Source: an uncultured Acidobacteriota bacterium | GTDB taxonomy: Bacteria > Acidobacteriota > JAQAZP01 | Length of the DNA stretch: 64,000 bases | Assembly (NCBI GenBank): GCA_963836075.1 | Contig: CAWIIB010000001.1 | Span: 1,024,001 to 1,088,000 of the forward strand | Direction of reading: 5' to 3' | Shown: positions 2,742 through 47,966 of the stretch, in pieces | Numbering within the stretch: position 1 is the first letter of the stretch | Layout of the letters: each line of letters opens with the position of its first letter | Translations under genes and position numbers: made by a program | The notes under the pieces: model-generated | Told to the model about the DNA's origin: nothing | Seen by the model: the letters and a program-made list of their open reading frames with translations, nothing else | Databases searched by the model: none

Positions 2742-3236
2742 TCAGGAAGGGGAGAGCCAAAGGCCGAGGTGGATCAGGGGGACAAGCAGGAGCCGGGACA
2801 GGCGGTGGGAGAGCATACCCAGGCGGCCCAGCCGTCCCGCCAGCGGATTGACCCAGGTCCAGGGACGGCGATGCAGCAGGAGCGTGTGCTCCGGGCCCAG
2901 GATGGCGGTCACCCGGCCGAGCATCATCTCCGAAGGGACCCATGACCAGGCCCGGGAGTTGTCCCCTTTCTGGCAGCAGGGGCGGCTGCCGTCGGCGGCC
3001 GCCCGGGACATCAGCAAGCGGTGAACCACCACCGTCTCGCCCTGGCGCAGGGCAATGATGTCGCCGCAGCGGAGCCGCTCCGGGGAGATCGGCTGAATGG
3101 TGACCCGGTCGCCGGGGGAGGCCACCGGCACCATGCTGCGCCCCTCCAGACGGAGAGTGAACTCCTGCCGGCTGTGCCGCCAGAGGTCCAGCACGGCGGC
3201 GGTCACCGGCAGCCCGGGTGCTCCCTTTTCCCCCAC
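2742..3236 (-). CDS. S24/S26-family (signal peptidase I-like, Ser-His type) peptidase; last gene of RiPP-like operon
   Basis: EGRSMVP (catalytic Ser), GDII, VVHRL (His) and KGDN motifs. Starts 4 nt after the C25 gene stop. Confidence 0.85.
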   Translation of the reverse strand: MGEKGAPGLPVTAAVLDLWRHSRQEFTLRLEGRSMVPVASPGDRVTIQPISPERLRCGDIIALRQGETVVVHRLLMSRAAADGSRPCCQKGDNSRAWSWVPSEMMLGRVTAILGPEHTLLLHRRPWTWVNPLAGRLGRLGMLSHRLSRLLLVPLIHLGLWLSPS

Positions 3237-3240
3237 CTGC

Positions 3241-5985
3241 TCACTCCCACGATTTGAGCCGCGAGGCCGGGTCTCCCAGAAGGGTGAACATGCTGACCAT
3301 CACATCGGTGGCGCCCAGAGCATGCGCGGCCACCTTGGCCTCGGTGACAATGACACCGAGACGGTCCTCCCCTTCATCAAAGATCAACGAGAAGATTTCC
3401 GGGGCCAGGAGATCCTGTTCCCAGGTGTAGCTCAGCCCACTGGGCGAGAAGCATCCGAACCCGCCGCCCAGTTCCGCAGTCGCCAGCTCCTCGGCCAGAC
3501 AATAGTAGAACGGATGCGAGAAATAGCCGTTGAGACAGGTCATGGTGAGCACGAAGGTCAGGGCGTCCTCGTTACTCAGCGACGCCACGTCGGCCGAGCG
3601 GAACATATACTCGCCGGCCCAGCCGGTCACCGACCCGTGGCCGTTGTAGTGGACGATGATCTCACCGATGTTGAAGCCCCGGACAATGTCTTCCGTGGCA
3701 TCGTCCACCACGCCGTACTGGGAGAGATACACCCGGCCAGGCACCATCCCATTGGGCAGCATGGCCAGCAGCGTCTCGTTCAGCGACTCGAAGACCGGCT
3801 CGTCGTCAGCGATAAAGAGGGCACGGGCGGGCACCGCTGCCGTCGATTGCTCGTGGGCCAGCAGCCGGGCCACCATGCGCCCGGCCATATCCAGATCGCT
3901 GGCCGGCAGCCGCCCGATACACATCTCCGGCAGGACATCGTCGCCTTCCACACAGACATACCAGTTGTCGTCCGGCGTCAGCCCCAGTTCGCTCAGTGAA
4001 AGGTGCACCGGCACCCGGCTCTGTTTTCCGGTGCCGAAATAGTCGAGGTAATCGGTGTTGGCATCCCCCAGCAGCAGAACGAACTCCGGGGCCGGGGCCG
4101 GCCACTCCCGGTAGGCATGGCCCAGGAAAGCCTGCAGCGCCGCCGGGTCGGCGATCCCGTGGTTGAAGTCGTCGTAGATATCCTCCAGGGCCACCGACAC
4201 GGCGCGGAGCCCCTGGCCCTGGCGATAGCTGACCAGCGGGTCGGCGGCCGCCAGGAACTCCCGCGGCGTGATCAGGATATAGTCAGCACCGTCACCGCCG
4301 GCCCAGAGCCCCGGCGATGTCCAGCCCTCCACCGATGCCGGGGACCGGAAACGGCCCGACGTCAGAGCCTGGTACCGTGCGGGGCCACCGGCGGTCTCTC
4401 TCCATGCCGCCGTGAACCCGCCTCCGGCCTCGCTGATGCCGACGCCCACCACGCGCTTCACGCTCAGATGGGAACTGATATCAAAGACGGCCACCTCCGG
4501 TTCCGAGAAACCGTGGACAGCAATGACCTGGGGGCCGGCCCCGGCAGTGGTGATCCAGAGCTGGTCGTCCATGGCGCGAAGACGTCTGCGGTAGTCCAGC
4601 TCGATCCAGTTGACGTATATGCTGTCCACCGCCGCCCCGGTGTCACCCGGGCAGTTCACGGTGATGGTATTCAACCCCTGGGCCAACAGATCGGAGGTGA
4701 TGGTCATCTCCTGGACAAAAACGTGGTCACCGTCCCAGAACTGGTCCCCCGCCTCGACCCCGTTGACCCGCACCCGGGTGTGATGGTTGGGATGCGGTGC
4801 CGCTGTGGAACGTCCCCGGCAACACACCCGGAGGGTTCCGTCCCACACTCCGGGAGCGAGGTTGGGAATTTCCAGCTGGTAGTCCATGGACGAGGGCGCG
4901 GTGAGCATGTCCCAGAACCAGTAGTCCTCCTCCGGCGCCCCCGGTGCCGCCTCCCACATCCGGTGGTTTTCCTCCACGTGCACGGTTTCAGTGGTGGAGG
5001 TGACCAGTCTGCCGCCGCCGGCGAGCGAACCATTCACCACATCCATCCGCTTACCCGGAGGGCCGTTCCAGTAGAGCCAGTAAACGTTGGTCCCGGTGAA
5101 GCTGCTCTCCATAGCCTGGCCGTAGAAAATGAGGCTCCCCTCGGGCCATGGCACGTCCTTTTCCGGGCCGGCCACCAGAACCGGCACTTCCCTTCCCCGG
5201 TTGAACAGTTTCAACGTGGCCCGGTCAATTGCATCCACCTCGCCGTGGCTCAAACCCGTGGAGAGCAGCGCTGCCACATAGTCAATGGCATGGAGGCCGT
5301 CTTCCTCCACCTCAATGCGCAACGCCCCGTCGCTTCGTGGGCCGGGGAGACCGACCAGTCCACCGGGGGAAGAAATGGCTGAACCCGTGCCTGGCGGAGC
5401 CTCCGGCGACGCCACAGCTCCGACCGCCGGCTGGACAAAGCTGAGCCGGACCAGCAGGCGGGTGGCACAGCGCAGGTTTCCAGCCGATGGATCCCACTGG
5501 AAGGGCTGGAATAGAACCCGGGCCATCCGGGCGCCACGCCGCACAGCCGGTGGGTCCACCGCCACCAGGGCGGCGGGATAGATCCCCGTGCCCCCGATAC
5601 ACCGTTCCGTGCCGCCGCCTTCCGGAGACAGGGTCAGGACGGGGAAGAGCCGCTGCAGCTGGTGGTGCTCGTAGTCCACATCGAGGATCTCGGCACTCAA
5701 TGCGCTTCCCTCGGGGAGCGGAATGGTGCAGCCAAGACGGGGCAATTCGGGCAGGCCGATATCCGAGGTCCTGGCCCAACCGTCCACCACCACCCGCCGG
5801 CATGGTCCGTCCGGCCCCGCGGTCGGCACCAGCCGGTAGGTCGGCAGGTTGAGTTCCAGGGTCATGCCCCGGGAGTCCCGGTCCCGCAGGTCAAGTTCAC
5901 CGGGAAGCGACAGGGCCGGGCCGGGTGTCAGAGCGCCGGCCGGCACCGTGAGCAGAAGCAACAGCAGAGTTAGTCCGTATCTCAT
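3241..5985 (-). CDS. Secreted C25-family (gingipain-like) cysteine peptidase with N-terminal propeptide
   Basis: Signal peptide, propeptide-like GLPELP region, ADYILIT, YDDFNHG, VLLLGD, IGRLP, catalytic YNGHG and MTCLNG, terminal LLGDP. Confidence 0.9.
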   Translation of the reverse strand: MRYGLTLLLLLLTVPAGALTPGPALSLPGELDLRDRDSRGMTLELNLPTYRLVPTAGPDGPCRRVVVDGWARTSDIGLPELPRLGCTIPLPEGSALSAEILDVDYEHHQLQRLFPVLTLSPEGGGTERCIGGTGIYPAALVAVDPPAVRRGARMARVLFQPFQWDPSAGNLRCATRLLVRLSFVQPAVGAVASPEAPPGTGSAISSPGGLVGLPGPRSDGALRIEVEEDGLHAIDYVAALLSTGLSHGEVDAIDRATLKLFNRGREVPVLVAGPEKDVPWPEGSLIFYGQAMESSFTGTNVYWLYWNGPPGKRMDVVNGSLAGGGRLVTSTTETVHVEENHRMWEAAPGAPEEDYWFWDMLTAPSSMDYQLEIPNLAPGVWDGTLRVCCRGRSTAAPHPNHHTRVRVNGVEAGDQFWDGDHVFVQEMTITSDLLAQGLNTITVNCPGDTGAAVDSIYVNWIELDYRRRLRAMDDQLWITTAGAGPQVIAVHGFSEPEVAVFDISSHLSVKRVVGVGISEAGGGFTAAWRETAGGPARYQALTSGRFRSPASVEGWTSPGLWAGGDGADYILITPREFLAAADPLVSYRQGQGLRAVSVALEDIYDDFNHGIADPAALQAFLGHAYREWPAPAPEFVLLLGDANTDYLDYFGTGKQSRVPVHLSLSELGLTPDDNWYVCVEGDDVLPEMCIGRLPASDLDMAGRMVARLLAHEQSTAAVPARALFIADDEPVFESLNETLLAMLPNGMVPGRVYLSQYGVVDDATEDIVRGFNIGEIIVHYNGHGSVTGWAGEYMFRSADVASLSNEDALTFVLTMTCLNGYFSHPFYYCLAEELATAELGGGFGCFSPSGLSYTWEQDLLAPEIFSLIFDEGEDRLGVIVTEAKVAAHALGATDVMVSMFTLLGDPASRLKSWE

Positions 5986-7137
5986 GTGGTCTGTTCTTCC
6001 TCTTCGGGCCGGGTGGCGTCGAGCGCCAGTTGCCTGACCAACGGTTCCTGCTCCTCAAAACGGCCCACCGTCAGCCGGAAGCAGGAGATATCGCCAATAT
6101 GCTCGATGAGCTCCTTCATCCGCATAACGGACCCGGTATCCCTGCCCCGCCCGGATGAATCGACCCGTTGTTTTATTCCGGGCAGCAGGCCGAATGCCGC
6201 CTGGTGGACTGGTATGCTCTCCAGCGCCGGTGAACGTGAGAAATCGGGCCGGGCCGTCTCACCCCTGAACACGTTGAGCAGATGGTCCCGGTGTTCCTCC
6301 AGCAGGTCCGCAAGACGGACTGCCAGCCCTTGCCCCAGCGGGTAGTCCAGCCGGAATTCGGCCACATCGGTGAGCGGTCTGGTCACTTCGATTCCGGGGT
6401 GCAGTCGGACCAGGGCATCGAGCAGCGGCTCCCAGCCCGGCTCCCGGGCCCCGATCACCAGCCGGCCCATGGCCCTGGCTTGCGGCCCCGGATCGAGGAT
6501 GAGCAGCAGGGCCGGCGCTGCCGTTGCACCGCCTGTCGTTTCACCAGCAATGGCCGGCAGAGGGATCTTTCCACCCCTCAGCGCCACGCCATCGCTTACC
6601 GACTCCGCCGGCCCTTCTTCAGGAACCACCCAGAGACTGCGCGGAAAGGGGTGAACCCGGCCGGTCCGGCGGTGGACCGGACATATTTCATCGGAATAGA
6701 GGGTGAACCCCGCTTCGGCCAGGGCCAGGGCCATGGTGGTCTTTCCCGTGCCCGGCGGCCCGGCCAGGATCACCGCCCGGCCATGGCGCACCGCCACTGC
6801 CGCGTGGAGCAGCAGGTGATGGTTCAGGCTGTCAAAAAGTGTCTGGGTGACCCACTGCCAGGCATGGTGGACCGGGGTGGGATGTCCGTCGAGGGACTGT
6901 TCCCCGTGACGGTCAGCGCCGCCCGCGGTGCGCGGCGGCCCGGGAGAAGCTGACCCCCGGCCCCTCCGGCCCGTTGAAGCAAGCGCTGATCCGCAGGTCG
7001 GCGTCAACCCCGGACACAGTGGTGCGGAACGACCCGTAATCCCGGTCAAACAGTTCCAGCAGCTGTTCCGAATCGCTGGACAGGTCCAGGTCCGTTCCGA
7101 GAATGCAGTAGCGTGCCTGGTGCCGGTCCCGGATCAC
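5982..7137 (-). CDS. HprK-related P-loop kinase-like protein (one frame break near 6930-6960)
   Basis: GTG start overlaps the rSAM stop (GTGA). N-part MIRDRHQARYCILGTDLDLSSDS continues in another frame into LLHAAVAVRHGRAVILAGPPGTGKTT...YSDE...PFPR. Confidence 0.75.
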
Positions 7138-12872: not shown

Positions 12873-13050
12873 GGCTCCTCTCAACTTGGTTTACACCGGG
12901 GGACCGTGAACCGTCCCCGGACACTGATCCTTTAACCGTTGAAGTATACCCGCTGGAACGGAACACCGTCTACGGTTTCTTCTTGTTCCGCCGGTTAAAA
13001 GAAGATATATTTCCCGGGATGAAACTCCTTTGTCTAACTCGGAGCGAATA

Positions 13051-13954
13051 ATGCGTATTCTGATTTCCGGCTCCGGCGGACTGGTGGGCCGCACCCTCTG
13101 CCGGGGCCTGACCGCCGCCCGGCACCAGATCACCCCCCTGGTTCGGCGGCGGCCCGGGTACACGCCTCCGGCGGAGTCGGTCTGGTGGAATCCCGTGGAC
13201 GGGGAACTGGACCTGGCGGGCCTGGAGGGTCACCAGGCGGTAATCCACCTGGCCGGTGAAAACATCGCCTCGGGCCGCTGGACCGCGGCCCGCAAAAAGA
13301 GGATACGGGAAAGCAGGGTCAGGGGACCGGCCTGCTGGCTGGTGCCCTGGCCCGGCTGGACAGCCCGCCGCACACGCTGATCTCGGCATCGGCCGTGGGA
13401 TATTACGGGAACCGGCCCCCGGAAGATATTCTGACGAGGGGTCACCACCGGGAGCGGGATTCCTCGCCGGGGTCTGCCGGGAGTGGGAAGCGGCGGCGGG
13501 GCCTGCCGCCGACGCCGGGATCAGGGTGGTCAACATCAGGTTCGGCGTGGTGCTCCACCCCGGCGACGGCGCCCTGGCCAGAATGCTGCCGGTGTTTCGC
13601 TGCGGTCTCGGCGGTCCGGTGGGCAACGGCCGGCAAATGATGAGCTGGGTCGCCGCCGACGAGCTGCCGCCGCTGATCTCCCACCTGCTGGAGGAACGGT
13701 CGCTGTCCGGGCCGGTGAACGCCGTGTCGCCCAACCCGGTTTCCAACAGAGCGTTCGGCCAGGCGCTGGGCCGGGTGCTCTCCCGCCCGGCGAAACTGCC
13801 GCTGCCGGCGGTGGCCGCCCGGCTGATGTTCGGCGAGATGGCGCAGGAACTGCTCCTCGGCGGGGCCGCAGTCCTGCCCCGGGCCCTGCTCGACTCCGGC
13901 TACCGCTTTGCCCACCCCGAACTGGAGCAGGCCCTGCGGGCCATGCTCGGCTGA
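13051..13954 (+). CDS. TIGR01777/YfcH-like NAD-dependent epimerase-family oxidoreductase (frame breaks near 13330 and 13420)
   Basis: MRILISGSGGLVG, HLAGENIA..RWT, then ISASAVGYYG and GFLAGVCREWE...GLGGPVGNGRQMMSW in shifted frames. Confidence 0.85.
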
Positions 13955-29654: not shown

Positions 29655-29875
29655 TCAGTTCCGCTCCTCGGTGGCCCGGCCGCTTGCCGGGGATACAGGG
29701 TGCATGCCGCAGCCTGCGGCGAACCAGGTGATTATACCCGCTCCCCTCCGGGCTCGCCACAAAATGGCGGCAGCATATTGATCCGGTGGCGTTTATGGAG
29801 TACATTTCAATCTTTCCACGACACACCGGAAATCGGCTCCGGCGCACAGAAATCCACTACCGCAGGAAGGACAAC

Positions 29876-32278
29876 ATGGCTGAAGGGCAGGACAAGACGA
29901 CCCGCAAAAAATTCCCGCCGACATACTGGCTGGTGATTCTCTTCGAGTTCTTCGAACGCGGATCCTACTACGGGATGATGAGTATCCTCTCGGTCTATTT
30001 CACCGATGAGCTCTTTTTCCGCAAGGAGAGCGTGGGGATCATCAAAAGCACCATTCAGCCGCTGCTCTATTTTCTGCCGATCATCAGCGGCGCCCTGGCC
30101 GACCGGTTCGGCTACCGCAAGATGCTCACCCTGGCCTTCACCTTCCTCGGTCTGGGCTACTTTCTCACTGCCCGGGTCACCGACTACGGGCTGGTTTTCC
30201 TCGCCCTGGTGGTGATGGGGGTCGGCGCCGGACTGTTCAAACCGATCATTTCCGGCACCATCGCCCGGGTCACCGACGAGTCAAACTCCACCATGGGCTT
30301 CGGTATCTTCTACTGGACCATCAACCTCGGCGCCTTCCTCTTCCCGCTGATCCTGGTGCCCTGGCTCAAGGGCTACGGCTGGCACTGGGTGATCTACGCC
30401 GCGGCCATCGGCACCGGCGCCATGATAATCCCCACCCTGCTCTTCTACCGCGAACCGGCGCGTCAGGAAACCGATGAGGAGCGGAAGAAGCGGGAAAAGA
30501 AGGAAGCCGCCACACCGCTGCTGCCCACCATCATCACCACCGTGGCCAATGCCTTCGAGATCGTCTACAGCCCGCTGGTGCTGATCTTCCACCGCTTCCG
30601 CGCTTCCGCCGCCGGCATGGCCCTGATGATCGCGGTCCTGCTGGGCTTCCTCGGCTACGCCGTCTGGGATTTCAGCGGCACACGCCAGGCCTCGATCCAA
30701 TTGGACCATGCGCTCGTCTCGGACGGCGAACCGCTGGTGGTGCTGCGGATCAACCGGGACCAGTTGCGCGCCGAGGAATATTCCGTCGACCATCAGCAGC
30801 TGTTGTGGCCCGGGGGCCGCTCCCTGATCCTCGAGACCGCGGACGCCGGTCCGGACGCCGAGCCGGGATTCGATCTGCCCCTGCCGGATGACGAAGACCT
30901 GGTGGTGGGGATCAGCGGTTCCCCTGGCAGTGCAGAGCTGCTGGAGGCTTTGCAGCATTTCCAGCTCACCGGGCTCACCGTTGCGGACCTGGACAACGGT
31001 TTGGCGGCGCTGGCCGGCAACCAGGGAAACCTGGTGCAGATCACGGTGTTCAAGCCGAACCGCTACGAGGACTTCAAGGGCCAGTTGCTGGCCGGTCTGA
31101 CGGCCATCCCCGGCCTGGAAGGACTGAACGGTGACACGCTCGACGAGTGGGTGGCTGCCGGTGATAGCCGGCCCACCGTGGCGGTGTCGATCTCCGGAGA
31201 CAGTGACGTGGCCGCCGAGCGGTCGGCCGACGGGAACTACTCGGTGACCCTGGCCGAGTTGCCCGGCAAGGAATGGCCCGACCGCCGTGATCTGCTCTCC
31301 TCACTGCGATCACAGCCCGGGCTGACCATGCTCTCCGCCGACACCGTCGACCGGCTGCTCAATGATGCGGCGTCCCGACCCTTCTTTTATCTCTTCCTCG
31401 GCGCATTGCTGGCCATGGCCACGGTGATCCTCTTCATCGAGGGGTGGTTCAAGAAAACGTCCATGGGCGGAAAGATCGGCGTGCTCATCGCCATCGGCGT
31501 GGTCATGGTAATCGTCTTCTGGGTGCTGCCCGGACTGACCCTCTTTGCCCGAATTCTTTCCACGGTGATCTTTTCCACCGTGTTGTCGCTGTTGATCATC
31601 AAGCAGGACGATCCCCAGCGGTTCCGGGACCATTTCCGCTTCCTGCTGATGATCTTCATCTACTCCGGGTTCTGGGTGCTCTACTTCCAGATGTTCGACT
31701 CGGTGCTCTGGTATATGAAGGCCTATGTCGACGCCACACCGCTGAACAACATGATGAACGCCATGCTCGGCGGCATCGGCATCACCAACTGGCGTTTCGA
31801 CATCGAACATGTGACGGTGATCAACGCCGGCACCATCATCCTGCTCCAGCTGTTCATCTCCAAGGTGGTCAAGAACACCAAGGCCCTGCCGACCATGATC
31901 TTCGGTATATTCCTGGGGACCGTGGGCATGGCCATCCTGGCCATCAACACCAGTATCTGGACCCTCCTTCTTGGTATCGGGATCTTCTCCATCGGTGAGA
32001 TGACCGCCCACCCGAAATTCATCAGCTACATCGGCCTGACCGCCCCGCGGAACAATGTGTCGATGTATATGGGCTATATCTTCCTCTACGGGGTGATCGG
32101 CAGCAGCATCGGCGGTGTGCTGGGGGCCAACCTCTACGTCACCTTTGTGGACGAGCTGAACCGGCCGAAAACCCTCTGGCTGATCTTCAGCATGATCGGC
32201 GTGGCCACCATTGCCGGCCTCTGGCTTTACAACCGGTTCCTGGTGGTGCCCCGGGAGGCCGAGGCGCAGAAAGCCTGA
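29876..32278 (+). CDS. POT/PTR-like MFS peptide transporter with large central insertion
   Basis: FEFFERGSYYG (ExxER), GALADRFG, GLFKP, FYWTINLG and FSIGEM motifs; 800 aa. Confidence 0.85.
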   Translation: MAEGQDKTTRKKFPPTYWLVILFEFFERGSYYGMMSILSVYFTDELFFRKESVGIIKSTIQPLLYFLPIISGALADRFGYRKMLTLAFTFLGLGYFLTARVTDYGLVFLALVVMGVGAGLFKPIISGTIARVTDESNSTMGFGIFYWTINLGAFLFPLILVPWLKGYGWHWVIYAAAIGTGAMIIPTLLFYREPARQETDEERKKREKKEAATPLLPTIITTVANAFEIVYSPLVLIFHRFRASAAGMALMIAVLLGFLGYAVWDFSGTRQASIQLDHALVSDGEPLVVLRINRDQLRAEEYSVDHQQLLWPGGRSLILETADAGPDAEPGFDLPLPDDEDLVVGISGSPGSAELLEALQHFQLTGLTVADLDNGLAALAGNQGNLVQITVFKPNRYEDFKGQLLAGLTAIPGLEGLNGDTLDEWVAAGDSRPTVAVSISGDSDVAAERSADGNYSVTLAELPGKEWPDRRDLLSSLRSQPGLTMLSADTVDRLLNDAASRPFFYLFLGALLAMATVILFIEGWFKKTSMGGKIGVLIAIGVVMVIVFWVLPGLTLFARILSTVIFSTVLSLLIIKQDDPQRFRDHFRFLLMIFIYSGFWVLYFQMFDSVLWYMKAYVDATPLNNMMNAMLGGIGITNWRFDIEHVTVINAGTIILLQLFISKVVKNTKALPTMIFGIFLGTVGMAILAINTSIWTLLLGIGIFSIGEMTAHPKFISYIGLTAPRNNVSMYMGYIFLYGVIGSSIGGVLGANLYVTFVDELNRPKTLWLIFSMIGVATIAGLWLYNRFLVVPREAEAQKA

Positions 32279-32356
32279 CCTGTGACCCGCACCCACCACC
32301 CGCCGGGGTGGTGGGTTTCCATGTTGTCCGCACGTGTACAAAGTGAAACCGGTCAT

Positions 32357-34695
32357 ATGGTCTCCGTCGCCAGATACCTCCTGCTCATCCTGATATTGAT
32401 TTCGCTGGTTCTCCAGGGCGGCTGCTCCAGGGAACCCGGGATCGACCTCGAGCTGGAAGTCACCCGGATCCACCTGATGCAGGGAGGCCCCCTGCTGCTC
32501 AACCTCGAGTACCGGTGGCGGCGGGACGCCGGCTTCACCCTCGACTACCAGAAGCCGATGGTCTACGTCCATTTCCTCAACGAGGAGAAAGAGATCTTCT
32601 TCCAGGACGACCACGTACCACCGGCGGAAGTTCTTTTCGGTGATCGCCACGACCAGACAGTCAGCTACCAGCGGTGCGGTATTCTGCTGACCACCGACCC
32701 CGAACTGTTTGAAAATCTGGACCGGTCACACGTGAGGATCAGGAGCGGGTTCTACGAGAAAACGGAGATGACCAGGAAACATCCGGTCCTCGACACCCGG
32801 ATGAAACCCACTCCCCGGCCATCCGCTCTCCCCACGATCACCGCCCTTGAAGGCACAGCCGCCCGCACCGCGGCCGGCAGCCGCGCGACCTCGCTCCCGC
32901 TGCTGCTGCCGTCCTCCATCATCAGAGGGCCTGCAACCGACGAACCGCTGGCCACCCGGCTGATTTCCCGGGAGCAGCTGTCGCTGATCAGGGATCACCT
33001 GCCGGCACCGGCCGGCGGCGCGGAGCGCCCAGCCCAGCAGCCCGGCCCGCTGGGAATTGAAATGCCGGCCCACACCTCGGCTGAATTCATCCTCCGCCCG
33101 GCCGCCGGCTCGCGCCTGGTCTTCACCCCCCTGGCCCGCTCCCGGACCCTGTTCCGTGTCACGGTTCGCCGGACCGGAGAAGACGGAGAGGTCCTCCTGG
33201 AACGGACGGTTACCGGTGATGAACCGGAATTGTCACTGGCCCTGCCGGGCCCGGGGGATGGCCCGATGAGCCTGCGTCTGGAATGCCGGGGGCCCGATCC
33301 AGGCATCTGGGTCGATGCCCGGGTGGTGGAGCCGGCACCCGCTGTTCCGCCGGACCGGGAACTGGAAGGAAGGCTGGTTGAAATCCGCCGTGCCGCCCGG
33401 GACTGGAACGCCCTGGTGGTCATTCTCGATGCCACACGGGCCGATGCCCTCTCCAGCTACGGGCATTCCCGGCGCACCACTCCCACCCTGGACAGGATCG
33501 CCCGCCAGAGTGTCCAGTTCATCGAAAGCCACTCCTCGGCGTCCTACACCATCTCCTCCACGGCCAGCTTGTTTTCAGGTCTCTATCCCACCACCCACCG
33601 GGTGCTGGACTGGCAGGACCGCCTCTGGGAGGGCTTTCCCGTCCTGGCCGAGGCCCTTTCGGAATCCGGGAAATTCACCGCGGCCATAACCGCAAATCCT
33701 TGTATTTCAGATACCTACGGGATGAGACGCGGGTTCGACCACTTCACCGTGGTACCCCGGGTACGGGATGAGCGGATGGATTCAGCGGCGGTGAACAGTT
33801 GCCTCGAAGAACTGACCCCGCAACTGGCTGGCCCGGCAATCTCCTCGTTCTATCTCTACCTGCACTACCTCGAGCCCCACATGCCCTACGACCCTCCGGA
33901 ACCGATCCGGGAGCTGGTCACACGCCAGTCCAGCGACCCCAGTCTGCCCGCCACCCGGGAGACCATCCGCGATCCCGAACACGCCCGGGGGGAGGAACGG
34001 GAACAGTTGGCGGCTCATTTTCGAGCCCTGTACCACGGAAACCTGACCTACGTGGATTTCCAACTGGCCAAAGCCCTGGCCCGGCTGCGGCGGGAGGGAC
34101 TGCTGGACCGCACCCTGCTGCTGATCACCTCCGATCACGGAGAGGCTTTTCTGGAGCATGACCGGATGCTCCACGGCTCCACCGTCTATCGTGAGGAGAT
34201 CCTCGTCCCGCTGCTCGTGCGTTTTCCGCCGCCACTGGAGAAGCTGTCCGGCCTCAGCCGGCATCCGGTGAATACGGTGGACACCACGGCCTTTCTGCTC
34301 CAGTTGCTGGGCCCACCCGAAAGCCCGCTGGGCCGCTCGATGGAAGGCCGCAGCTACCTCCCCCCCTCCTGGGTGCGGAGAGTCCCACCGCCGGGGACCT
34401 GACCTACCTGGTGGCAGCTCTCACCCAACCCTACAGCTACGGTCTGTTCGACGACACTCACAGCCTTGTGGCGGGTCCGCACGGTGTCGAGCTGTTCAAC
34501 CGCACCACCGATCCGTACGAGTTGTCTCCCCTCCAGGGCAGCGACTCACTGGACCGGGCCTATCTCCTGCAGCAGTTCCTCGCCCACCTGACCACGAATT
34601 CCTGGCGGGATCCGAGCTCCACCGGATCCGGGGATGCCATGGTTGACCAGGCGCTGAAGGACCAACTGGCGGCCCTGGGGTATGTCCAGGACTGA
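32357..34695 (+). CDS. Sulfatase-like hydrolase/transferase with N-terminal extracellular domains (frame break at poly-C near 34360)
   Basis: ILDATRAD, TTPTLD, HYLEPHMPY, TSDHGE; C-terminus ELFNRTTDPYE...LAALGY in a shifted frame. Confidence 0.8.
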
Positions 34696-34699
34696 GTCC

Positions 34700-34729
34700 T
34701 TGACAGAACGGTAATACATTGTAATAATT
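34700..34729 (+). promoter_or_regulatory. Promoter of RHH-znuACB operon with overlapping direct repeat
   Basis: TTGACA-N17-AATAAT; GTAATACATT GTAATAATT direct repeat across the -10. Confidence 0.65.
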
Positions 34730-34780
34730 GAACCATGTAGCGTCTTGGATGGGGAGAAGTTTGTGTGAGGTGGTCGGCCG

Positions 34781-35041
34781 ATGAAACGCAAGAAACCGGA
34801 AGTGATCACCTTCAAGGTGGATGAATCGCTGCTCGAAGCGATGGAGGACATTCCCAACCGCTCCGAATTCATCCGCCATGCCGTGCAGGCAGCCCTCGAA
34901 CACAGTTGCCCGCTCTGCCGCGGCACCGGGGTGCTGACCCCGGAGCAGCACGACCACTGGAGGGCCTTCTCCGCCAGCCACCAGCTCCGGCGGTGCGAAG
35001 AGTGCCGTGAAATGCACCTGGTGTGCGAGAAGGGAAAGTGA
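34781..35041 (+). CDS. CopG/ribbon-helix-helix regulator with Cys/His-rich C-terminus
   Basis: VITFKVDESL...NRSEFIRHAV RHH pattern; CPLC, CEEC and HLVC motifs. Confidence 0.8.
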   Translation: MKRKKPEVITFKVDESLLEAMEDIPNRSEFIRHAVQAALEHSCPLCRGTGVLTPEQHDHWRAFSASHQLRRCEECREMHLVCEKGK

Positions 35042-35961
35042 TGAACCGTCGCCCTGCCCTGCTGTTCTTTCTCCTGTTCACGGTACTGGCCTTCGGCTGC
35101 TCCGCCCCGAAGGAGACCGGCACGGCCCACAGGCCCCGCCCGGGGATATTCGTCAGCATCCCGCCGCAAAAATTCCTCGTGCAGCGCATCGCCGGAGACC
35201 TGGTCACGGTGGACGTCCTGTTGCCGCCCGGCCAGTCGCCGGCCACCTATGAACCGGCCCCCCGGCAGATGAGCCGGTTGTCGGAGTCGGCGCTCTTCTT
35301 CCGGGTGGGCGTGCCGTTCGAGGAGCGGTTGATGAAGAAAATCACCGACACCATGCCGGACCTGGAGGTGGTGGACACCCGGGAGGGAATCGAACTGCGA
35401 CGGATGGAGGGGGGACACGATCACGGCCACGCCCATCACGGCGATCACACTCATCAGCCCGGCAGCCCGGACCCGCACAGCTGGCTCGATCCGCGGCTGG
35501 CCATGATCCAGGCCCGCACGATGCACGATGCGCTGGTGCGGATCCTGCCCGGCAACGCCGACAGCCTGCGGGACGGGCTGGAGCGGCTGACCGCCGACCT
35601 GCAGGAAACCGACCGCCGGGTGGCACTGACTCTGGAGCCGCTGCGCGGCCGCAGCATCTACGTCTTCCACCCGGCTTACGGGTATCTGGCGGATGCCTAC
35701 GGCCTGACCCAGGTGGCGGTGGAACTGGAGGGCAAGGAGCCCAGCGCCAGGCAACTGGCCGACACCATCACCAGGGCCCGGCAGGACGGCGTACACGCCA
35801 TTTTTTACCAGCCGCAGTTTTCCCGGAGCAGCGTCGAGACGCTGTCCCGGGAAATCGGCGGCAACGCCGTTGAACTGGACCCGCTGGCCGAGGGCTACCT
35901 GGAGAACCTCGAGCGAATGGCGGCGGCCATCAGCGACGCACTGGAGGCGGAGGCGAATTAG
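35041..35961 (+). CDS. znuA: Zinc/manganese ABC transporter substrate-binding lipoprotein
   Basis: Lipobox LAFGC, His-rich loop HDHGHAHHGDHTH, DPHSWLDP, HPAYGY. Confidence 0.88.
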   Translation: MNRRPALLFFLLFTVLAFGCSAPKETGTAHRPRPGIFVSIPPQKFLVQRIAGDLVTVDVLLPPGQSPATYEPAPRQMSRLSESALFFRVGVPFEERLMKKITDTMPDLEVVDTREGIELRRMEGGHDHGHAHHGDHTHQPGSPDPHSWLDPRLAMIQARTMHDALVRILPGNADSLRDGLERLTADLQETDRRVALTLEPLRGRSIYVFHPAYGYLADAYGLTQVAVELEGKEPSARQLADTITRARQDGVHAIFYQPQFSRSSVETLSREIGGNAVELDPLAEGYLENLERMAAAISDALEAEAN

Positions 35962-35963
35962 CG

Positions 35964-36728
35964 ATGCCTGACCCTGACGGCAGCCCGGCCATCAGCGCCC
36001 TGAACCTCACCTTCACCTACGGCGGCCCGCCGGTGCTCGAGGATGCCACCTTCACCATCGAGCGCGGCGATTTCGCTTCCATCGTCGGCCCCAACGGCGG
36101 GGGCAAGACCACCCTGCTCAAACTGATCCTGGGTCTGCTGCACCCCTCGCGGGGCGAGATTCGGGTCAGCAACCGCCCGCCGGCTGACGCCCGCCCGCTC
36201 ATCGGGTATATGCCGCAGCACGTGGACCTCGATCCCAGCTTCCCGATAAACGTGACCGAGATCGTGCTGATGGGCCGCCTGGCGCCGGGCATGGCTCCCG
36301 GCCCCGTCGGCCGCAAGGACCGCCGGCTGGCCGCCGGCATCATCGAAATGCTCGGTCTGGAGGAGGTGCGCCAGAAGCCGCTGGCCGAACTTTCCGGCGG
36401 CCAGCGGCAACGGGTGCTCATCGCCCGGGCTCTGGCCTGCCAGCCGGAGATCCTGCTCCTTGACGAACCCACGGCACATCTCGACCTGCATCTGGAAGAC
36501 GAGTTTCTCGAAATTCTGAAGGACCTGAACCGGCGGATGACGGTGGTGATGGTTTCTCACGACCTGGGGTTCGTGGCCAGCTGCGTCAACCGCTGCGTCT
36601 GCGTCAATCGCCACGTGCACCTGCACCCCACCAGCGCACCGAAGGATGACCTGATCCGCAGCATGTATGGTGACAGCGTCCGCCTGATCCGCCACGATGT
36701 GGATTTCCCGGAGGGCGAAGAACGATGA
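35964..36728 (+). CDS. znuC: Metal ABC transporter ATP-binding protein
   Basis: GPNGGGKTT, LSGGQRQR, LLDEPT and SHDL motifs. Confidence 0.9.
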   Translation: MPDPDGSPAISALNLTFTYGGPPVLEDATFTIERGDFASIVGPNGGGKTTLLKLILGLLHPSRGEIRVSNRPPADARPLIGYMPQHVDLDPSFPINVTEIVLMGRLAPGMAPGPVGRKDRRLAAGIIEMLGLEEVRQKPLAELSGGQRQRVLIARALACQPEILLLDEPTAHLDLHLEDEFLEILKDLNRRMTVVMVSHDLGFVASCVNRCVCVNRHVHLHPTSAPKDDLIRSMYGDSVRLIRHDVDFPEGEER

Positions 36729-37576
36729 GCGAGTTCGTCCAGGCCCTGAGCGAGCACGTCTTCCTGCAGCGGGCGCTGCTGGCCGGCCTGATGATCAGCC
36801 TGGCCTGCGGCATGGTGGGCACCTACGTGGTCTCCCGGAGGATCACCTACATCGCCGCCAGTGTGGCCCACTGCGTACTGGGCGGCATGGGCGCGGCCCG
36901 TTACCTCCAGGTGGTCCACGGCTGGGCCTGGCTGACACCGTTGTATGGCGCCCTGGCCGCCGCGGTGACCGCCGCGGTGATCATCGGCCTGATCAGCCTC
37001 AAGGCCCGGGAACGGGAAGACACCGTGATCGGTGCACTCTGGGCCATCGGCATGGCCGCCGGCGTGCTGTTCATATCCCGTACCCCCGGATACAACGAAG
37101 ACCTGATGAGCTACCTCTTCGGCAACATCCTGGTGATCTCCTCGCTTGATCTCTGGCTCATCGCCCTGCTGGACCTGGTGGTGGCGGCGATCACCCTGCT
37201 GTTCTACCGCCAGTTGCAGGCGGTCTGCTTCGACGAGGAATTTTCCCGTCTCCGCGGCCTGCGGGTGGAATTCCACTACCTGCTGCTGCTCTGTCTCACC
37301 GCCCTCACCGTGGTGCTGCTGGTCACCGTGGTGGGCATCGTGATGGTCATCGCCCTGCTCACCCTGCCGGCGGCCATTGCCGGATACTTCTCTCGTTCCC
37401 TGTGGCAGATGATGGTGCTGGCCACCGCAGTTTGCGCCCTGCTCACCAGTTCGGGACTGGCCCTCAGCTACGGCCCGAACCTCCCGGCCGGCGCCACCAT
37501 CATCATTCTCGCCGGCGCCGCCTACCTGCTGGTGGCTGGGGGACGGGCGCTGCTGCGCAGGTCCGCATCGGGCTAG
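36725..37576 (+). CDS. znuB: Metal ABC transporter permease
   Basis: ABC-3 permease motifs (SYLFGNIL, FDEEF, VGIVMVIALLTLP). Confidence 0.9.
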   Translation: MSEFVQALSEHVFLQRALLAGLMISLACGMVGTYVVSRRITYIAASVAHCVLGGMGAARYLQVVHGWAWLTPLYGALAAAVTAAVIIGLISLKAREREDTVIGALWAIGMAAGVLFISRTPGYNEDLMSYLFGNILVISSLDLWLIALLDLVVAAITLLFYRQLQAVCFDEEFSRLRGLRVEFHYLLLLCLTALTVVLLVTVVGIVMVIALLTLPAAIAGYFSRSLWQMMVLATAVCALLTSSGLALSYGPNLPAGATIIILAGAAYLLVAGGRALLRRSASG

Positions 37577-37592
37577 CCTCAAAAACCAGGCC

Positions 37593-37618
37593 GGAGCAAT
37601 AATTGACATAATTGCTCC
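37593..37618. promoter_or_regulatory. Inverted repeat enclosing a TTGACA hexamer (operator or hairpin)
   Basis: GGAGCAAT-AATTGACATA-ATTGCTCC. Confidence 0.4.
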
Positions 37619-37859
37619 AAGTTTCGAAATTCTTACGATTTATGTGAAAAATGACTGGAATTTCATCAACTGCTAGTTTATATTGAAGTTCAAGAGTTTT
37701 TTGATAGGGAACCTTCGGATGTTACTGGGGCCGGAGGATCGATTCCCAGCCTGTCGGATCGGGGCGCCAGACCCCGGATCTTGATGTTTTTCCAAACGCC
37801 ATCACCATCACCGGAATCGTCCGGGTTGATGGGTGAGATTTCCGGAAAGGAGTGCTTTA

Positions 37860-38969
37860 ATGCGTTACCGTGGTATGAAGGGTTGGATCTGTTGCTCCGC
37901 CCTCCTCGTTTTCCTTTTCTCCATCGGGCTCATGTTCAGCGCCGGCACCAGCCTGGCCGCTGACAGAGTTGTACTGGGAGAACTCTTCTCCCGCACCTCT
38001 TGACCATACTGCCCATCCGCGGTACGCGGATTTGAAGATCTCGTCGACACCTACGGCACCGACCAGTTCCTCCCCATCACCTGGTATCTGCCCGGCTACA
38101 CCGGCAGTATCCCCGAAGCCGCCACGCGGGCCTCGGCCAGTTTCTACAATGTCACCGGAGCGCCCACGGCATGGTTCGACGGCTGGACCAATTCGGTGGG
38201 AGGCCTGCCCTCAGGCTCCATGTTCTCCTACTACAACCCGATTGTGATCAGCCACCTCGGCTCGGCAAGCCCGTTGGAGATGACCGCCAGCTATACCCAG
38301 ACAGGACTCGACGTGACGCTCAACGTGCATATCGATGTCACCGGCTTTGTCAGCACCACCAGCAACCGGGTACACTTCATCGTCTGCGAGGACGGGGGTC
38401 AGGGCAATGTGAACATGTCCCGCCAGGCCCTGACCTACGAGCCGTTCACCCTCACCTCCCCTGGACAGTCAGTGGACATCCAGCGCACCACCACCCTCTC
38501 AGCCGCCTGGACCGGCCCGATCAACATCATCGTCTTTGTCCAGAGCCACGGTTCGAACTTTGACGTGCTGCAGGCGACCCTGGCCGCCGAGGAGTGGGCG
38601 GGAGACACCGTGGGCGTCACCCTTGGTTGCACCCCCGGTTCCGGCACACTCCCCTTCACTTCCAGCATGTGGCTCCGTCTGGAGAACCTCACCCCCTGGT
38701 CCCGGCGGATCTCGGGCAAGATCAACGCCACCATCGGCAACGGCTCGACGTTTACCAGCTGGAGAGCCGGTTGGACCAACCTCAGTCCCGCTGAAGTCTA
38801 TACATCAAACTGGAACCAGAACTTCCCGGGCCTGGCTTCGCTGGTGGGCGACAACATCTTCACCCTCTACGGCTACGATGTAACACCCGCACCGTATAAC
38901 CAGCCGCCCTATGCCCCGGACGGCGGTTCCGACACCGCGTCCTGCACCATCACGGCGTACGCGCCCTGA
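37860..38969 (+). CDS. Putative selenoprotein: secreted Omp28-like thioredoxin-fold protein with U48-P-Y-C motif (369 aa if read through)
   Basis: AAGGAG RBS, ATG 37860, signal peptide, VVLGELFSRTS-TGA(38001)-PYCP in frame with ORF 38196..38969; later GAPTAWFDG and IIVFVQ. Confidence 0.8.
38015..38031 (+). promoter_or_regulatory. Candidate bacterial SECIS element
   Basis: ATCCGCG-GTA-CGCGGAT perfect hairpin starting 11 nt after the in-frame TGA, with G-starting loop. Confidence 0.7.
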
Positions 38970-38991: not shown

Positions 38992-39030
38992 AAAGCCCCG
39001 GTCATCGCAACGGTGACCGGGGCTTTTTTT
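38992..39030 (+). terminator. Rho-independent terminator
   Basis: AAAGCCCCGGTCA...TGACCGGGGCTTTTTTT. Confidence 0.9.
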
Positions 39031-43679: not shown

Positions 43680-43734
43680 AACCGGCCGGCGGACCGGGAA
43701 GGCCCACCGGACTCACTGCTACTCATTGAGGGAG

Positions 43735-44322
43735 ATGAAGATGACCAGTAGAAAAACCTGTCGGCGATCCGATTCAGCGGGGCGCGTCCTGGCGGCCCTG
43801 GTGCTGCCCGTCATGATGGTGGCGTCATTCTGCATCGGCTGCGGGAGCGCAGCCGACAAGGCGATGACCGAAGGATCATCGGGTCGCACCGCTGCTGCCG
43901 AGTTCAGTCTCACCGACATTCAAGGGAAAGTTCACCACCTCTCCGACTACCGGGGCAAGGTGGTGGTGCTCAACTTCTGGGATACCTGGTGCGGGCCCTG
44001 CCGCCAGGAAATCCCGGGGTTCATCGCCCTCCAGGATCAGTTGGGGTCCGAGGGGCTCCAGTTGCTGGGGGTGGCCCTGGGCCAGGAGGGAGCGGCCAGG
44101 GTCAAGGACTTCACCGCCGGCGCCGGCATAAACTACCCGGTCCTGCTCCTCGGTGAGAACAGCACAGTTCTGGCCGACTACGGCGGGATCAACTCCATCC
44201 CCGCCACATTTATCATCGACCGTGAGGGATACATCGCCGATAAGCACATCGGTTACCTCGCCAAAAGCGCATTCGAGGCAATGGTCAGGCCGGTTATCGG
44301 GACCGGGGGGGAGACGTCGTGA
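43735..44322 (+). CDS. TlpA/ResA-like thiol-disulfide oxidoreductase (probable lipoprotein)
   Basis: LSDYRGKVVVLNFWDTWCGPC, IPATFIIDREG; start position uncertain. Confidence 0.88.
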   Translation: MKMTSRKTCRRSDSAGRVLAALVLPVMMVASFCIGCGSAADKAMTEGSSGRTAAAEFSLTDIQGKVHHLSDYRGKVVVLNFWDTWCGPCRQEIPGFIALQDQLGSEGLQLLGVALGQEGAARVKDFTAGAGINYPVLLLGENSTVLADYGGINSIPATFIIDREGYIADKHIGYLAKSAFEAMVRPVIGTGGETS

Positions 44323-46019: not shown

Positions 46020-46723
46020 TGAGATTCGAGCAGACACTCATCCGGGGGCGGCTGATCAAACGCTACAAACGTTTCCTGGCCGATGTGCGGCTGGCCAGCG
46101 GAGCGGTCACCGTCCACTGCCCCAACACCGGCAGCATGATGGGCTGCGCCAGGCCGGGGAGCGCGGTCCGGCTCTCCACCAGCGACAATCCGGGACGCCG
46201 CTATTCCCACACCTGGGAGATGGTCCGCGTGGGCCGGGTCTGGGTCGGCATCAACACCATCCTGGCCAACCGCGTGGCCGCCGAGGCCATTGGCGCGGGC
46301 CTGATCCCCGACCTTGCCGGATACGACCGCCTGGAACGAGAACGCCCCCTGGGCGATTCGTCCCGTGTGGACATCCTGCTCAGTGGCCCTGCCGGCCGGT
46401 GCTGCTACGTGGAGGTGAAGAACGTCACCCTGGCCGAGAACGGCCTGGCGCTCTTCCCCGACGCGGTCACCCTGCGCGGGCTCAAGCATCTCCGGGAACT
46501 GGCCGAGGTGGTTCGAAAGGGCCGGGGCAAGGTTCGCGCAGCCATGCTCTACCTGGTCCAGCGCACCGACTGCCACTCATTTCGAGCCGCCCAGGCCATC
46601 GACCCCGATTACGCCGCCGGGCTGGACCATGCTGCCCGCGCCGGTGTCGAAGTCTACCCCCTCCTGGCCCGGGTCAGCCCCACCGGCATCGCACCGGTCA
46701 AGCTGTTGCCATGGAAAAGGTGA
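46019..46723 (+). CDS. sfsA: SfsA-family DNA/RNA nuclease
   Basis: RYKRFLADV, HCPNTGSM, VEVKNV and FPDAVTLRGLKHL motifs. Confidence 0.93.
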   Translation: MRFEQTLIRGRLIKRYKRFLADVRLASGAVTVHCPNTGSMMGCARPGSAVRLSTSDNPGRRYSHTWEMVRVGRVWVGINTILANRVAAEAIGAGLIPDLAGYDRLERERPLGDSSRVDILLSGPAGRCCYVEVKNVTLAENGLALFPDAVTLRGLKHLRELAEVVRKGRGKVRAAMLYLVQRTDCHSFRAAQAIDPDYAAGLDHAARAGVEVYPLLARVSPTGIAPVKLLPWKR

Positions 46724-46753
46724 CACCCATTAGAGTGCCCCTATATAAAGAAA

Positions 46754-46785
46754 GGGCCTGGGCTGTGCAATCACAACCCAGGCCC
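46754..46785. terminator. Hairpin between convergent sfsA and oadB
   Basis: GGGCCTGGG.TGTG-CAAT-CACA.CCCAGGCCC. Confidence 0.65.
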
Positions 46786-46806
46786 AAAATATTCACTCGA
46801 TACAGC

Positions 46807-47966
46807 TCAGCCGAGCAGGGTGAGGAAGACACCGGCGGCGACGGCGGATCCGATGACACCAGCCACGTTGGGGCCCATGGCCGCCATCAGCGGGTTGACC
46901 TTGCCGTTGGTGCTCTCCGAAACGAAGTTCTGCACCACCCGCGAGGCCATGGGCACCGCGGAGACGCCGGCGGCGCCGATGCAGGGGTTGAGCTTCTTGC
47001 CCTTGGGCAGGAAGAGGTTGATCAGCTTGGCGAAGACCACCCCGCCGAAGGTGCTGAACCCGAAGGCGACCGCCCCGAGCACCAGGATGAACAACGTCTC
47101 GGGCCTGAAGGAACGTCTCACCCACCATGGTGGCGCCCAACGGTGATGCCGAGGAAGATGGTGACGATGTCCACCAGCGAACCGCCGGCCGTTCTGGCCA
47201 GGCGGTCGGTGACCCCGGATTCACGCAGCAGGTTGCCGAACATCAGCATGCCGATCAGCGGCGCGCAGGAGGGGATGGCCAGGGAGGCCAGCATGGCCAC
47301 AGCGATGGGGAAAATGATCACTGCCGTCTTGCGAAACCGGCTTGGCCTGCGGCATGTCGATGGCCCGCTCTTTTTTGGTGGTCAGCATCCGCATGATCGG
47401 CGGCTGGATCACCGGGACCAGTGACATGTAGCTGTAGGCCGCCACGGCAATGGCTCCCAGCAGGTGCGGCGCCAGCTTTGCAGCAAGGTAGATCGAAGTG
47501 GGGCCGTCCGCGCCGCCGATGATCCCGATGGCCGCGGCTTCCTTGATGTCGAAACCGAAGAGGAAGTACGCTCCCAGCGCAGCGACAAAGATGCCGAACT
47601 GCGCCGAAGCGCCAAGGAGGAAGGTGATCGGCCGGGCCAGCAGGGGGCGAAAATCGGTCAACGCCCCCACGCCCATGAAGATCACCGGCGGAAGAAACTC
47701 GGTCTTGATCCCCGCGTCGTAGACCATCTGCAGCAGCGGGTGAATCCCGGTGTGCACGCGGCTGCACCTTCGCTGGTGGCCCCGAGCATGGCCAGCGGCA
47801 GGTTGGCCAGGATGGCCCCGAGACCGATGGGAATCAGGAGCAACGGCTCGTAGTTCTTGCGAATCGCCAGAAAGATCAGCACCCCGCCGATGACGAACAT
47901 CACCAGGTTCTGCCAACTCAGGCTGGCAAACCCCGAGCCGCGTATAAGCGTCTCAAAGGCTTCCAT
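46807..47966 (-). CDS. oadB: Na+-translocating decarboxylase beta subunit (about three frame breaks)
   Basis: [59 protein letters not shown] and [10 protein letters not shown] spread across four ORF pieces. Confidence 0.9.

Follow-up and report, generated by a model that had tools for sequence, protein, structure and literature searches.

A predicted exported selenoprotein with a UxxC motif and an HBP35/Omp28-like thioredoxin fold, encoded across an in-frame TGA in an uncultured Acidobacteriota bacterium

Does an in-frame TGA at codon 48 of a long reading frame in an uncultured Acidobacteriota bacterium end translation, or is it decoded as an amino acid? The frame in question lies within a 64,000-nucleotide stretch of contig CAWIIB010000001.1 (assembly GCA_963836075.1; the whole stretch is referred to here as the window), where a preliminary description had proposed a selenoprotein gene that standard annotation would overlook. 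The evidence assembled here makes it highly probable that 37860-38969 constitutes one gene for an exported selenoprotein of 369 residues, with a predicted selenocysteine (Sec) at UGA codon 48. Omp28-related/GOS_C selenoproteins with a UxxC motif are already known, and this protein represents a divergent branch of them that annotation systematically misreads; no new kind of system is involved.

A ribosome-binding site, an ATG at 37860, a signal peptide, the string ELFSRTS-TGA-PYCP, 321 further codons and a hairpin had been described for this locus, and each was found in its place, the signal peptide being judged by eye. Following ELFSRTS, the TGA of codon 48 leads directly into PYCP, and the frame then remains open for 321 codons up to the true stop, a TGA at 38967-38969 (the end coordinate 38969 counts the stop codon), giving a product of 369 residues. 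The working protein, P0001, was written with C for U48 and carries one spurious C derived from the stop codon. Its N-terminus, MRYRGMKGWICCSALLVFLFSIGLMFSAGTSLAAD, is basic and then hydrophobic up to SLA-AD, and a comparable N-terminus is present in all full-length homologs. A standard open reading frame (ORF) listing breaks the gene into 37833-38003 and 38196-38969. The suspicion that gene callers would split it is borne out by the public database, in which the gene is stored as a 249-aa fragment (P0002) and 24 of 28 family members are shortened likewise. Public protein sets hence store this gene and nearly all of its relatives as N-terminally shortened ‘hypothetical proteins’ that lack both the signal peptide and the active site, and function or localisation predictions made for the stored relatives are wrong for that reason.

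Homologous DNA was sought by scanning genome contigs with the protein aligned to its relatives, which yielded 49 pattern matches, five of them confirmed by tblastn (L001-L005); counts out of six sequences refer to the window gene together with these five loci. TGA occupies the codon-48 column in all five related loci, at identities of 43-85%, and is followed in each by P/A-Y-C-P-S-A-V. Two of them, L002 and L003, are paralogs from one metagenome-assembled genome and both retain the TGA, and synteny resembling that of the window was found in L001 and L002 and in none of L003-L005. Codon use was compared across four lineages (window, L003, L004 and L005), revealing 73 degenerate columns with a constant amino acid, in 56 of which the codon varies. 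Such codon-varying conserved columns lie on both sides of the TGA, at 33-42 ahead of it and at 50-119 in the stretch that follows it up to the first possible restart. Because the amino acids are kept whilst the codons vary synonymously, both flanks of the TGA must be translated in this frame.

These data bear on the most conventional explanation, in which the TGA is a true stop. On that view the locus would be an assembly error or a pseudogene, or else would consist of a leader of 47 codons and, after it, a second protein with an internal start, for example at GTG 38196. Retention of the TGA in six of six sequences, drawn from at least four assemblies and sharing 43-85% identity, rules out assembly error and recent decay. 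From the TGA to the first restart there are 64 codons, which vary synonymously whilst the protein that they encode is conserved, and full-length Cys forms of the protein exist. Furthermore, the predicted fold needs strand 1 (38-44), encoded before the TGA, as well as helix 1, encoded after it, and the joined sequence is modelled at a predicted local distance difference test (pLDDT) score of 94.9. Against this must be set the public calls, which read the TGA as a stop in P0002 and in the 24 shortened family members, the failure to see Sec machinery in the window (no tRNA, and no sel gene in 50 ORFs), and the use of TGA as a stop by 36 of the 52 ORFs in the window, more than for any other stop codon. 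We consider a true stop highly improbable. Since TGA is the usual stop in the window, the decoding of codon 48 would represent a local recoding event and not a reassigned genetic code.

The identity of the residue at this column was examined in 28 database proteins, each aligning over 80 or more residues of the N-terminal domain (N-domain). The 24 shortened members start after column 48, their own residues 1-18 aligning at query positions 57-121, and some of these calls start with V at the Val55 codon. One database call, P0005, lies on a contig equal in length to that of L002, whose DNA has the TGA. Column 48 is covered by the other four, and contains Cys in three (P0010, SCPYCP; P0013, GCPYCP; P0269, WCATCP) and Ser in one. 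The distant Cys relative P0269 reads ELFTATWCATCP, which conforms to the pattern ExFT..WCxxCP, whilst the full-length, 622-aa P0014 carries SAYCP and is thus an SxxC variant. Homologs with either Cys or TGA aligned to codon 48 had been suggested as a check on the selenoprotein proposal and both kinds were found, TGA in all five fetched loci and Cys in P0010, P0013 and P0269, alongside the Ser of P0014. A search for longer forms returned just two proteins, both N-terminally shortened. In a profile search, the Ig-like repeats of P0013 and P0014 (profile positions 247-418) dominated the 150 matches listed, among which only 12 concern the N-domain.

Decoding of the UGA as Sec is further suggested by a hairpin that begins 11 nt after the TGA and has a perfect 7-bp stem. 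The minimal Sec insertion sequence (SECIS) of Escherichia coli fdhF is 17 nt long and is located 11 nt from its UGA. In isolation the window hairpin folds at -9.7 kcal/mol (z = -3.07), with two of 200 shuffled sequences equally stable. The bacterial SECIS (bSECIS) model, as laid out in a 2026 review (PMC13188914), comprises a loop between 3 and 9 nt in length, a stem of 4-16 bp, a G within the first two loop positions, a spacing of 16-37 nt between UGA and loop, and a minimum free energy (MFE) of -7.5 kcal/mol or lower; a bulge-free version of this published model was applied here. All six sequences pass, with the loop 17-18 nt from the UGA in each, so that the hairpin first described as SECIS-like agrees with the published bacterial model in every constraint. 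The hairpins of the window and L001-L003 have 6-7 bp, a GUA loop, a spacing of 18 nt and energies of -8.8 to -10.0 kcal/mol, and those of L004 and L005 have 6 bp, a GGUC loop, a spacing of 17 nt and energies of -8.1 and -8.3 kcal/mol. L004 and L005 have Ala where the peptide otherwise has Arg (CGC to GCG), yet they keep a stem, in a shifted register.

Codon choice within the hairpin was also informative. The arm codons TCC (Ser53), GCG (Ala54) and GGA (Gly57) are the same in all four lineages, GCG and GGA being non-preferred (22% of Ala and 11% of Gly codons, respectively), and the Pro52 codon, which immediately precedes the hairpin arms, occurs in three forms across the same lineages. Invariant four- and six-fold degenerate codons account for three of four in the hairpin versus three of 43 elsewhere (p = 0.0047). 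When peptides of the window type were recoded synonymously, 8-9% of the recodings passed the bSECIS model and 1.3-3.4% were as stable as the observed hairpin. It is this comparative evidence, made up of the shared TGA column, the like spacing of the hairpins, the low pass rates of recoded window-type peptides and the frozen arm codons, that raises the hairpin above chance.

A number of observations weigh against the selenoprotein interpretation. The hairpin of the single window sequence is weak evidence: 248 of the 1,833 TGA trinucleotides in the window (13.5%) have a bSECIS-passing hairpin downstream, and the 66-nt context of the hairpin is no more stable than its shuffles (z = -0.41). Synonymous recodings of the 15 codons that follow the TGA mostly fold equally or more stably, and 16% hold a 7-bp stem; this null, based on the MFE of the free fold and on the presence of any stem within 45 nt, was not significant, and the model-specific bSECIS test was run in addition. 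When the peptides of L004 and L005 were recoded synonymously, 22-24% of the recodings passed the bSECIS model and 17-21% were as stable as observed. The peptide that encodes the hairpin, PSAV(R/A)GF, is conserved in the Cys forms too. No tRNA was detected in the 64-kb window or in the five related loci, no selA, selB or selD among the 50 window ORFs scanned, no sel gene in the 32 flanking ORFs of the loci, and no second selenoprotein gene in the 64 kb when ORFs were extended through TGA. An Rfam scan of the whole window gave nothing above the thresholds of curated families, a result that says little. The family scores of the protein fall under every curated cut-off, and a redox role cannot be universal in the family because P0014 has Ser at the Sec column.

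Some of these points would equally suit a UGA that is read through without Sec, by a near-cognate Trp or Cys tRNA or with Cys carried on tRNA-Sec, the hairpin then serving as a stimulator or being a by-product of the peptide. In particular, no Sec machinery was seen within the 64 kb, the bSECIS model is loose enough to be passed by 13.5% of window TGAs, and the hairpin-encoding amino acids are shared with the Cys forms. However, the loops begin with G-U or G-G-U, in agreement with the bSECIS model, and 24 shortened calls stand against three Cys forms. The TGA has been kept though one point mutation would give Cys, which argues that the encoded residue is advantageous over Cys. The related family NF045500 is, moreover, curated as a UxxC selenoprotein, and in the Cys forms the column holds the nucleophilic Cys of CxxC, a classic Sec/Cys pair such as that described for GOS_C and further families (PMC2398784). 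Read-through without Sec is therefore judged improbable, and Sec insertion at codon 48 is what we infer from the conserved TGA, the Sec/Cys pair and the hairpins.

Sequence-based family searches placed the protein near, and not within, established families. Pfam yielded sub-threshold matches only, to Omp28 (PF11551; 17 bits versus a gathering threshold of 34.9, E 0.0055) and Thioredoxin_3 (E 0.31). The NCBIfam model NF045500, ‘Omp28-related selenoprotein’, matched residues 34-179 with an E-value of 1.6e-14 and 54.1 bits; its curated cut-off of 200 bits was missed by the window protein and by nine relatives (34-60 bits). AlphaFold2 models were built from a 49-row alignment for the whole protein and a 28-row alignment for residues 32-250, giving a pLDDT of 86.9 for the former, with values below 50 at residues 1-12 and 19-31, and a pLDDT of 94.9 with a predicted template modelling (TM) score of 0.91 for the latter. 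The modelled topology comprises a strand (38-44), the U48-x-x-C51 motif, a helix (51-65), a strand (70-76), a helix (85-91), a strand (103-106) and a helix (121-133), followed by beta-sandwiches at 139-245 and 251-367. In both models UxxC follows strand 1 at the start of helix 1, in the connecting loop, which is where thioredoxin-fold oxidoreductases have CxxC. In a nine-row alignment Pro102, which directly precedes the third strand, is invariant, and we take its place to be that of the cis-proline of thioredoxin-fold enzymes.

A fold search with the whole protein was dominated by generic tandem beta-sandwiches (transglutaminases, RbmA), and the N-domain was searched alone instead. Foldseek against the PDB then placed HBP35 (5y1a) at the top, with an E-value of 2e-10 and a query-normalised TM-score (TMq) of 0.75 over 253 columns, followed by 2axo (TMq 0.59), with the Omp28 domain 2r2c at rank 6 (target-normalised TM-score, TMt, 0.68; root-mean-square deviation 2.9). 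Searches of PDB sequences with the N-domain gave no significant match. The thioredoxin fold that had been anticipated from the motif is accordingly borne out by both the model and the structural matches, whereas the label ‘Omp28-like’ stands as a resemblance and fails as a statement of membership, given 17 bits versus 34.9 for Pfam Omp28 and 54 versus 200 for NF045500.

A selenoprotein with a function other than redox chemistry has also to be weighed, one in which the selenol/thiol pair would bind a metal, a metalloid or haem, perhaps in connection with the znuABC genes upstream. The position of the motif, like the invariant Pro ahead of strand 3, is consistent with an oxidoreductase site, provided that the presumed cis-proline equivalence holds. 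A ZnuA/ABC/ABC-3 operon does lie directly upstream on the same strand, and ZnuA is found upstream in L002 as well, yet the permease gene is separated from the selenoprotein gene by a gap of 284 nt and the znu synteny is lost in L003, L004 and L005. Precedents for binding exist, in that HBP35 binds haemin besides having thioredoxin activity (PMC2907840) and metal-binding UxxC and UxxU selenoproteins are among those covered by the 2026 review (PMC13188914). On balance we regard a binding role as rather unlikely.

Under the favoured reading, that of a redox-active selenoprotein, decoding would follow the known bacterial pathway, in which the hairpin at 38015-38031 in the mRNA would be bound by SelB-GTP-Sec-tRNA(Sec) when the ribosome reaches the UGA at 38001, and UGA48 would be decoded as selenocysteine in place of termination. 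The precursor would be exported via its signal peptide, and the mature protein probably acts as a selenol/thiol-disulfide oxidoreductase outside the cytoplasm, at or beyond the outer membrane. By analogy with HBP35, Sec48 would attack as the nucleophile and Cys51 would resolve; export, catalytic activity and the nature of the substrate are likewise suggested by analogy.

The final 120 residues of the protein may relate to its destination. The beta strands of this C-terminal domain cover residues 251-367 in the AlphaFold2 model. The domain had no match in Pfam or NCBIfam, but lies at the very end of the chain in 110 of 113 other proteins recovered (database ids P0015-P0121 among these), with the shared tail motif DVTPAPYNQPP[YF]...CT[IV]T..AP. 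The passengers of the domain are unrelated (beta-helix, FG-GAP, sialidase, peptidase and others), and many are encoded on the same 2.30-Mb contig. This terminal position and promiscuity indicate that the domain probably sorts or anchors the protein. Its assignment as a type A C-terminal domain (CTD) of a type IX secretion system (T9SS) was considered and rejected (hhalign probability 0.9%), and the window protein had no match to TIGR04183 (Por_Secre_tail; cut-off 23 bits).

A different architecture was found in L004 (807-3428, 873 aa) and L005 (5911-8502, 863 aa), where the N-terminal Sec domain leads into FG-GAP/ASPIC-type repeats (approximately 500 aa), after which comes a T9SS type A tail. 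TIGR04183 scored 34.7 bits in L004 and 24.9 bits in L005, and was also found in P0014 and P0269. Most database relatives of ~790-817 aa are shortened calls of this same Sec-domain/FG-GAP/T9SS-tail architecture. The T9SS tails of L004 and L005 count in favour of the reading given above, as does the fact that the window also encodes GldF and GldG in addition to a PorU-like sortase, the ORF for which is flanked on the minus strand by ORFs resembling signal peptidase I (2742-3236) and HprK-related kinase A (5982-7049). The PorU-like sortase could process the candidate C-terminal sorting domain.

Taken further, the family may tentatively be viewed as a clade of cell-surface, HBP35-like oxidoreductases that nearly always use Sec and are delivered outside anaerobic bacteria of the Fibrobacteres-Chlorobi-Bacteroidetes (FCB) type, either by T9SS tails or by the undescribed 120-aa C-terminal sorting domain. 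We hold this broader picture to be possible, though doubtful. The ratio within the clade, of 24 shortened calls and five TGA loci to three Cys forms, is the reverse of the 74 Sec to 312 Cys sequences of GOS_C. If true, it would describe a selenium-based redox module that operates outside the cell and, with it, a new sorting signal (DVTPAPYNQPPY...CT[IV]T..AP) that is common to more than 100 unrelated secreted proteins.

The coordinates of the selenoprotein gene, its parts and the neighbouring genes are collected in the table.

Table. Features of the predicted selenoprotein locus and of other genes in the window (positions are those of the 64,000-nt stretch).
Feature	Position	Strand	Evidence or remark
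Shine-Dalgarno-like AAGGAG	37847..37852	+	Read from sequence; 7 nt upstream of ATG 37860
Full predicted selenoprotein coding sequence	37860..38969	+	Translation with TGA=U; 369 codons, Sec at codon 48; stop included
Predicted Sec-type (secretory) signal peptide, residues 1-33	37860..37958	+	By eye: basic n-region, hydrophobic core, SLA-A site
Thioredoxin-like domain and beta-sandwich, HBP35/Omp28-like	37963..38594	+	Residues ~35-245; AlphaFold, Foldseek, NF045500
In-frame TGA, predicted Sec codon U48	38001..38003	+	TGA at the same column in 6/6 sequences
U-P-Y-C motif	38001..38012	+	U48 is the first residue
Predicted bacterial SECIS hairpin AUCCGCG-GUA-CGCGGAU	38015..38031	+	7-bp stem, loop GUA, 18 nt from UGA to loop
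C-terminal beta-sandwich, candidate sorting/anchoring domain	38607..38966	+	~120 aa, residues 250-369; tail motif DVTPAPYNQPPY...CTITAYAP
Intrinsic-terminator-like hairpin	38992..39026	+	16 pairs, then T run; begins 23 nt after stop
znuA-like gene	35023-35961	+	Pfam ZnuA 7.3e-65
ABC ATPase gene	35964-36728	+	Pfam ABC_tran 2.1e-32
ABC-3 permease gene	36725-37576	+	Pfam ABC-3 3.2e-68
PorU-like sortase ORF	3241-5985	-	NF033707 1.3e-59, 202 bits versus cut-off 420; PorU2 N-terminal model NF052324

In the znu region the longest ORFs (34546-35796, 36017-36472 and 36557-37609 on the minus strand) were dismissed as antisense artefacts of high G+C content, the znuA, ABC and ABC-3 genes being the real ones. 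Two further candidates for read-through, at 36020-37609 (-) and 46399-47850 (+), were likewise discarded as low-complexity antisense translations with no family match. A thiol-disulfide oxidoreductase of the ResA/AhpC-TSA type at 43726-44322 (+), the gene for which is also present in L001, matches the selenoprotein model NF041054 (WAxxUGC; 1.1e-18) among others; its ORF is uninterrupted and hence it is presumably a Cys form. Further upstream, at 29786-34402 (+), two ORFs, one MFS/POT-like (830 aa) and one with a sulfatase domain (706 aa), share a frame and have a TGA and a single codon between them. These are probably two genes, as approximately 130 nt part the sulfatase from the transporter-like ORF in L001 and L002. 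A 116-aa ORF at 13030-13380 (+) covers only positions 1-88 of 292 in TIGR01777 (yfcH-type oxidoreductase) and may be a truncated or frameshifted gene.

Comparison with known systems places the window protein closest to NF045500, which is listed in the 2026 review as ‘hypothetical protein GOS_C’ with the motif UxxC (PMC13188914). GOS_C itself, described from the ocean metagenomes of the Global Ocean Sampling by Zhang and Gladyshev in 2008 (PMC2398784), combines a thioredoxin-like fold with UxxC, numbers 74 Sec and 312 Cys sequences and has no known function. As far as these accounts describe the family, the likeness extends to UxxC, the thioredoxin-like fold, Sec/Cys pairs and a downstream SECIS-like hairpin, all of which are present in the window protein. 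The NF045500 match covers profile positions 37-188 of 377 (~150 positions), which does not imply that the two U columns coincide. Unlike NF045500, the window protein continues from the N-domain into a lineage-specific C-terminal domain, and the L004 and L005 proteins continue into FG-GAP repeats and a T9SS tail. Because the window protein and its relatives score far below the NF045500 cut-off of 200, the window group represents a separate, divergent subfamily. A literature search for ‘Omp28’ in combination with selenoprotein or selenocysteine returned nothing on this subfamily.

The Omp28 family (PF11551, NF033782, 2r2c) shows a more limited likeness, consisting of weak matches (Pfam E 0.0055; NF033782 E 0.0018) and of a beta-sandwich that can be superposed on 2r2c, and the window protein reaches 17 bits versus 34.9 for Pfam and 17.5 versus 150 for NF033782. 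In contrast with Omp28 outer-membrane lipoproteins, no lipobox was seen by eye in the window signal peptide, and Sec takes the place of the first Cys. The distant Cys relative P0269 matches NF033782 at 2e-9. It also carries Pfam PF06764 (precomputed annotation), which we take to be DUF1223. With DUF1223/Atu2684 (2axo), a Cys protein, there is a motif-level alignment of ELFTSQGCASCP with ELFsrdgcpYCPSA, which is non-significant (E 0.24).

HBP35 of Porphyromonas gingivalis (5y1a) shares a thioredoxin-like motif, a beta-sandwich and a C-terminal domain with the window protein (TMq 0.47 for the whole protein), but uses Cys and is 15% identical in sequence. According to the HBP35 study (PMC2907840), HBP35 is a surface protein that combines a thioredoxin-like motif, a C-terminal domain and haemin binding, and its in-vitro thioredoxin activity is lost upon mutation of its two Cys residues. 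HBP35 is listed as a T9SS cargo with a type A CTD (PMC10202324), whereas the C-terminal domain of the window protein is not a recognisable type A CTD. The correct reading of 37860-38969 would thus add a divergent branch to the Omp28-related/GOS_C selenoproteins, tie the GOS_C family, of unknown function, by fold to the solved and assayed HBP35, and suggest that in uncultured anaerobes the cargo of secretion systems includes selenoproteins. For specialists, the existing picture is extended and not overturned.

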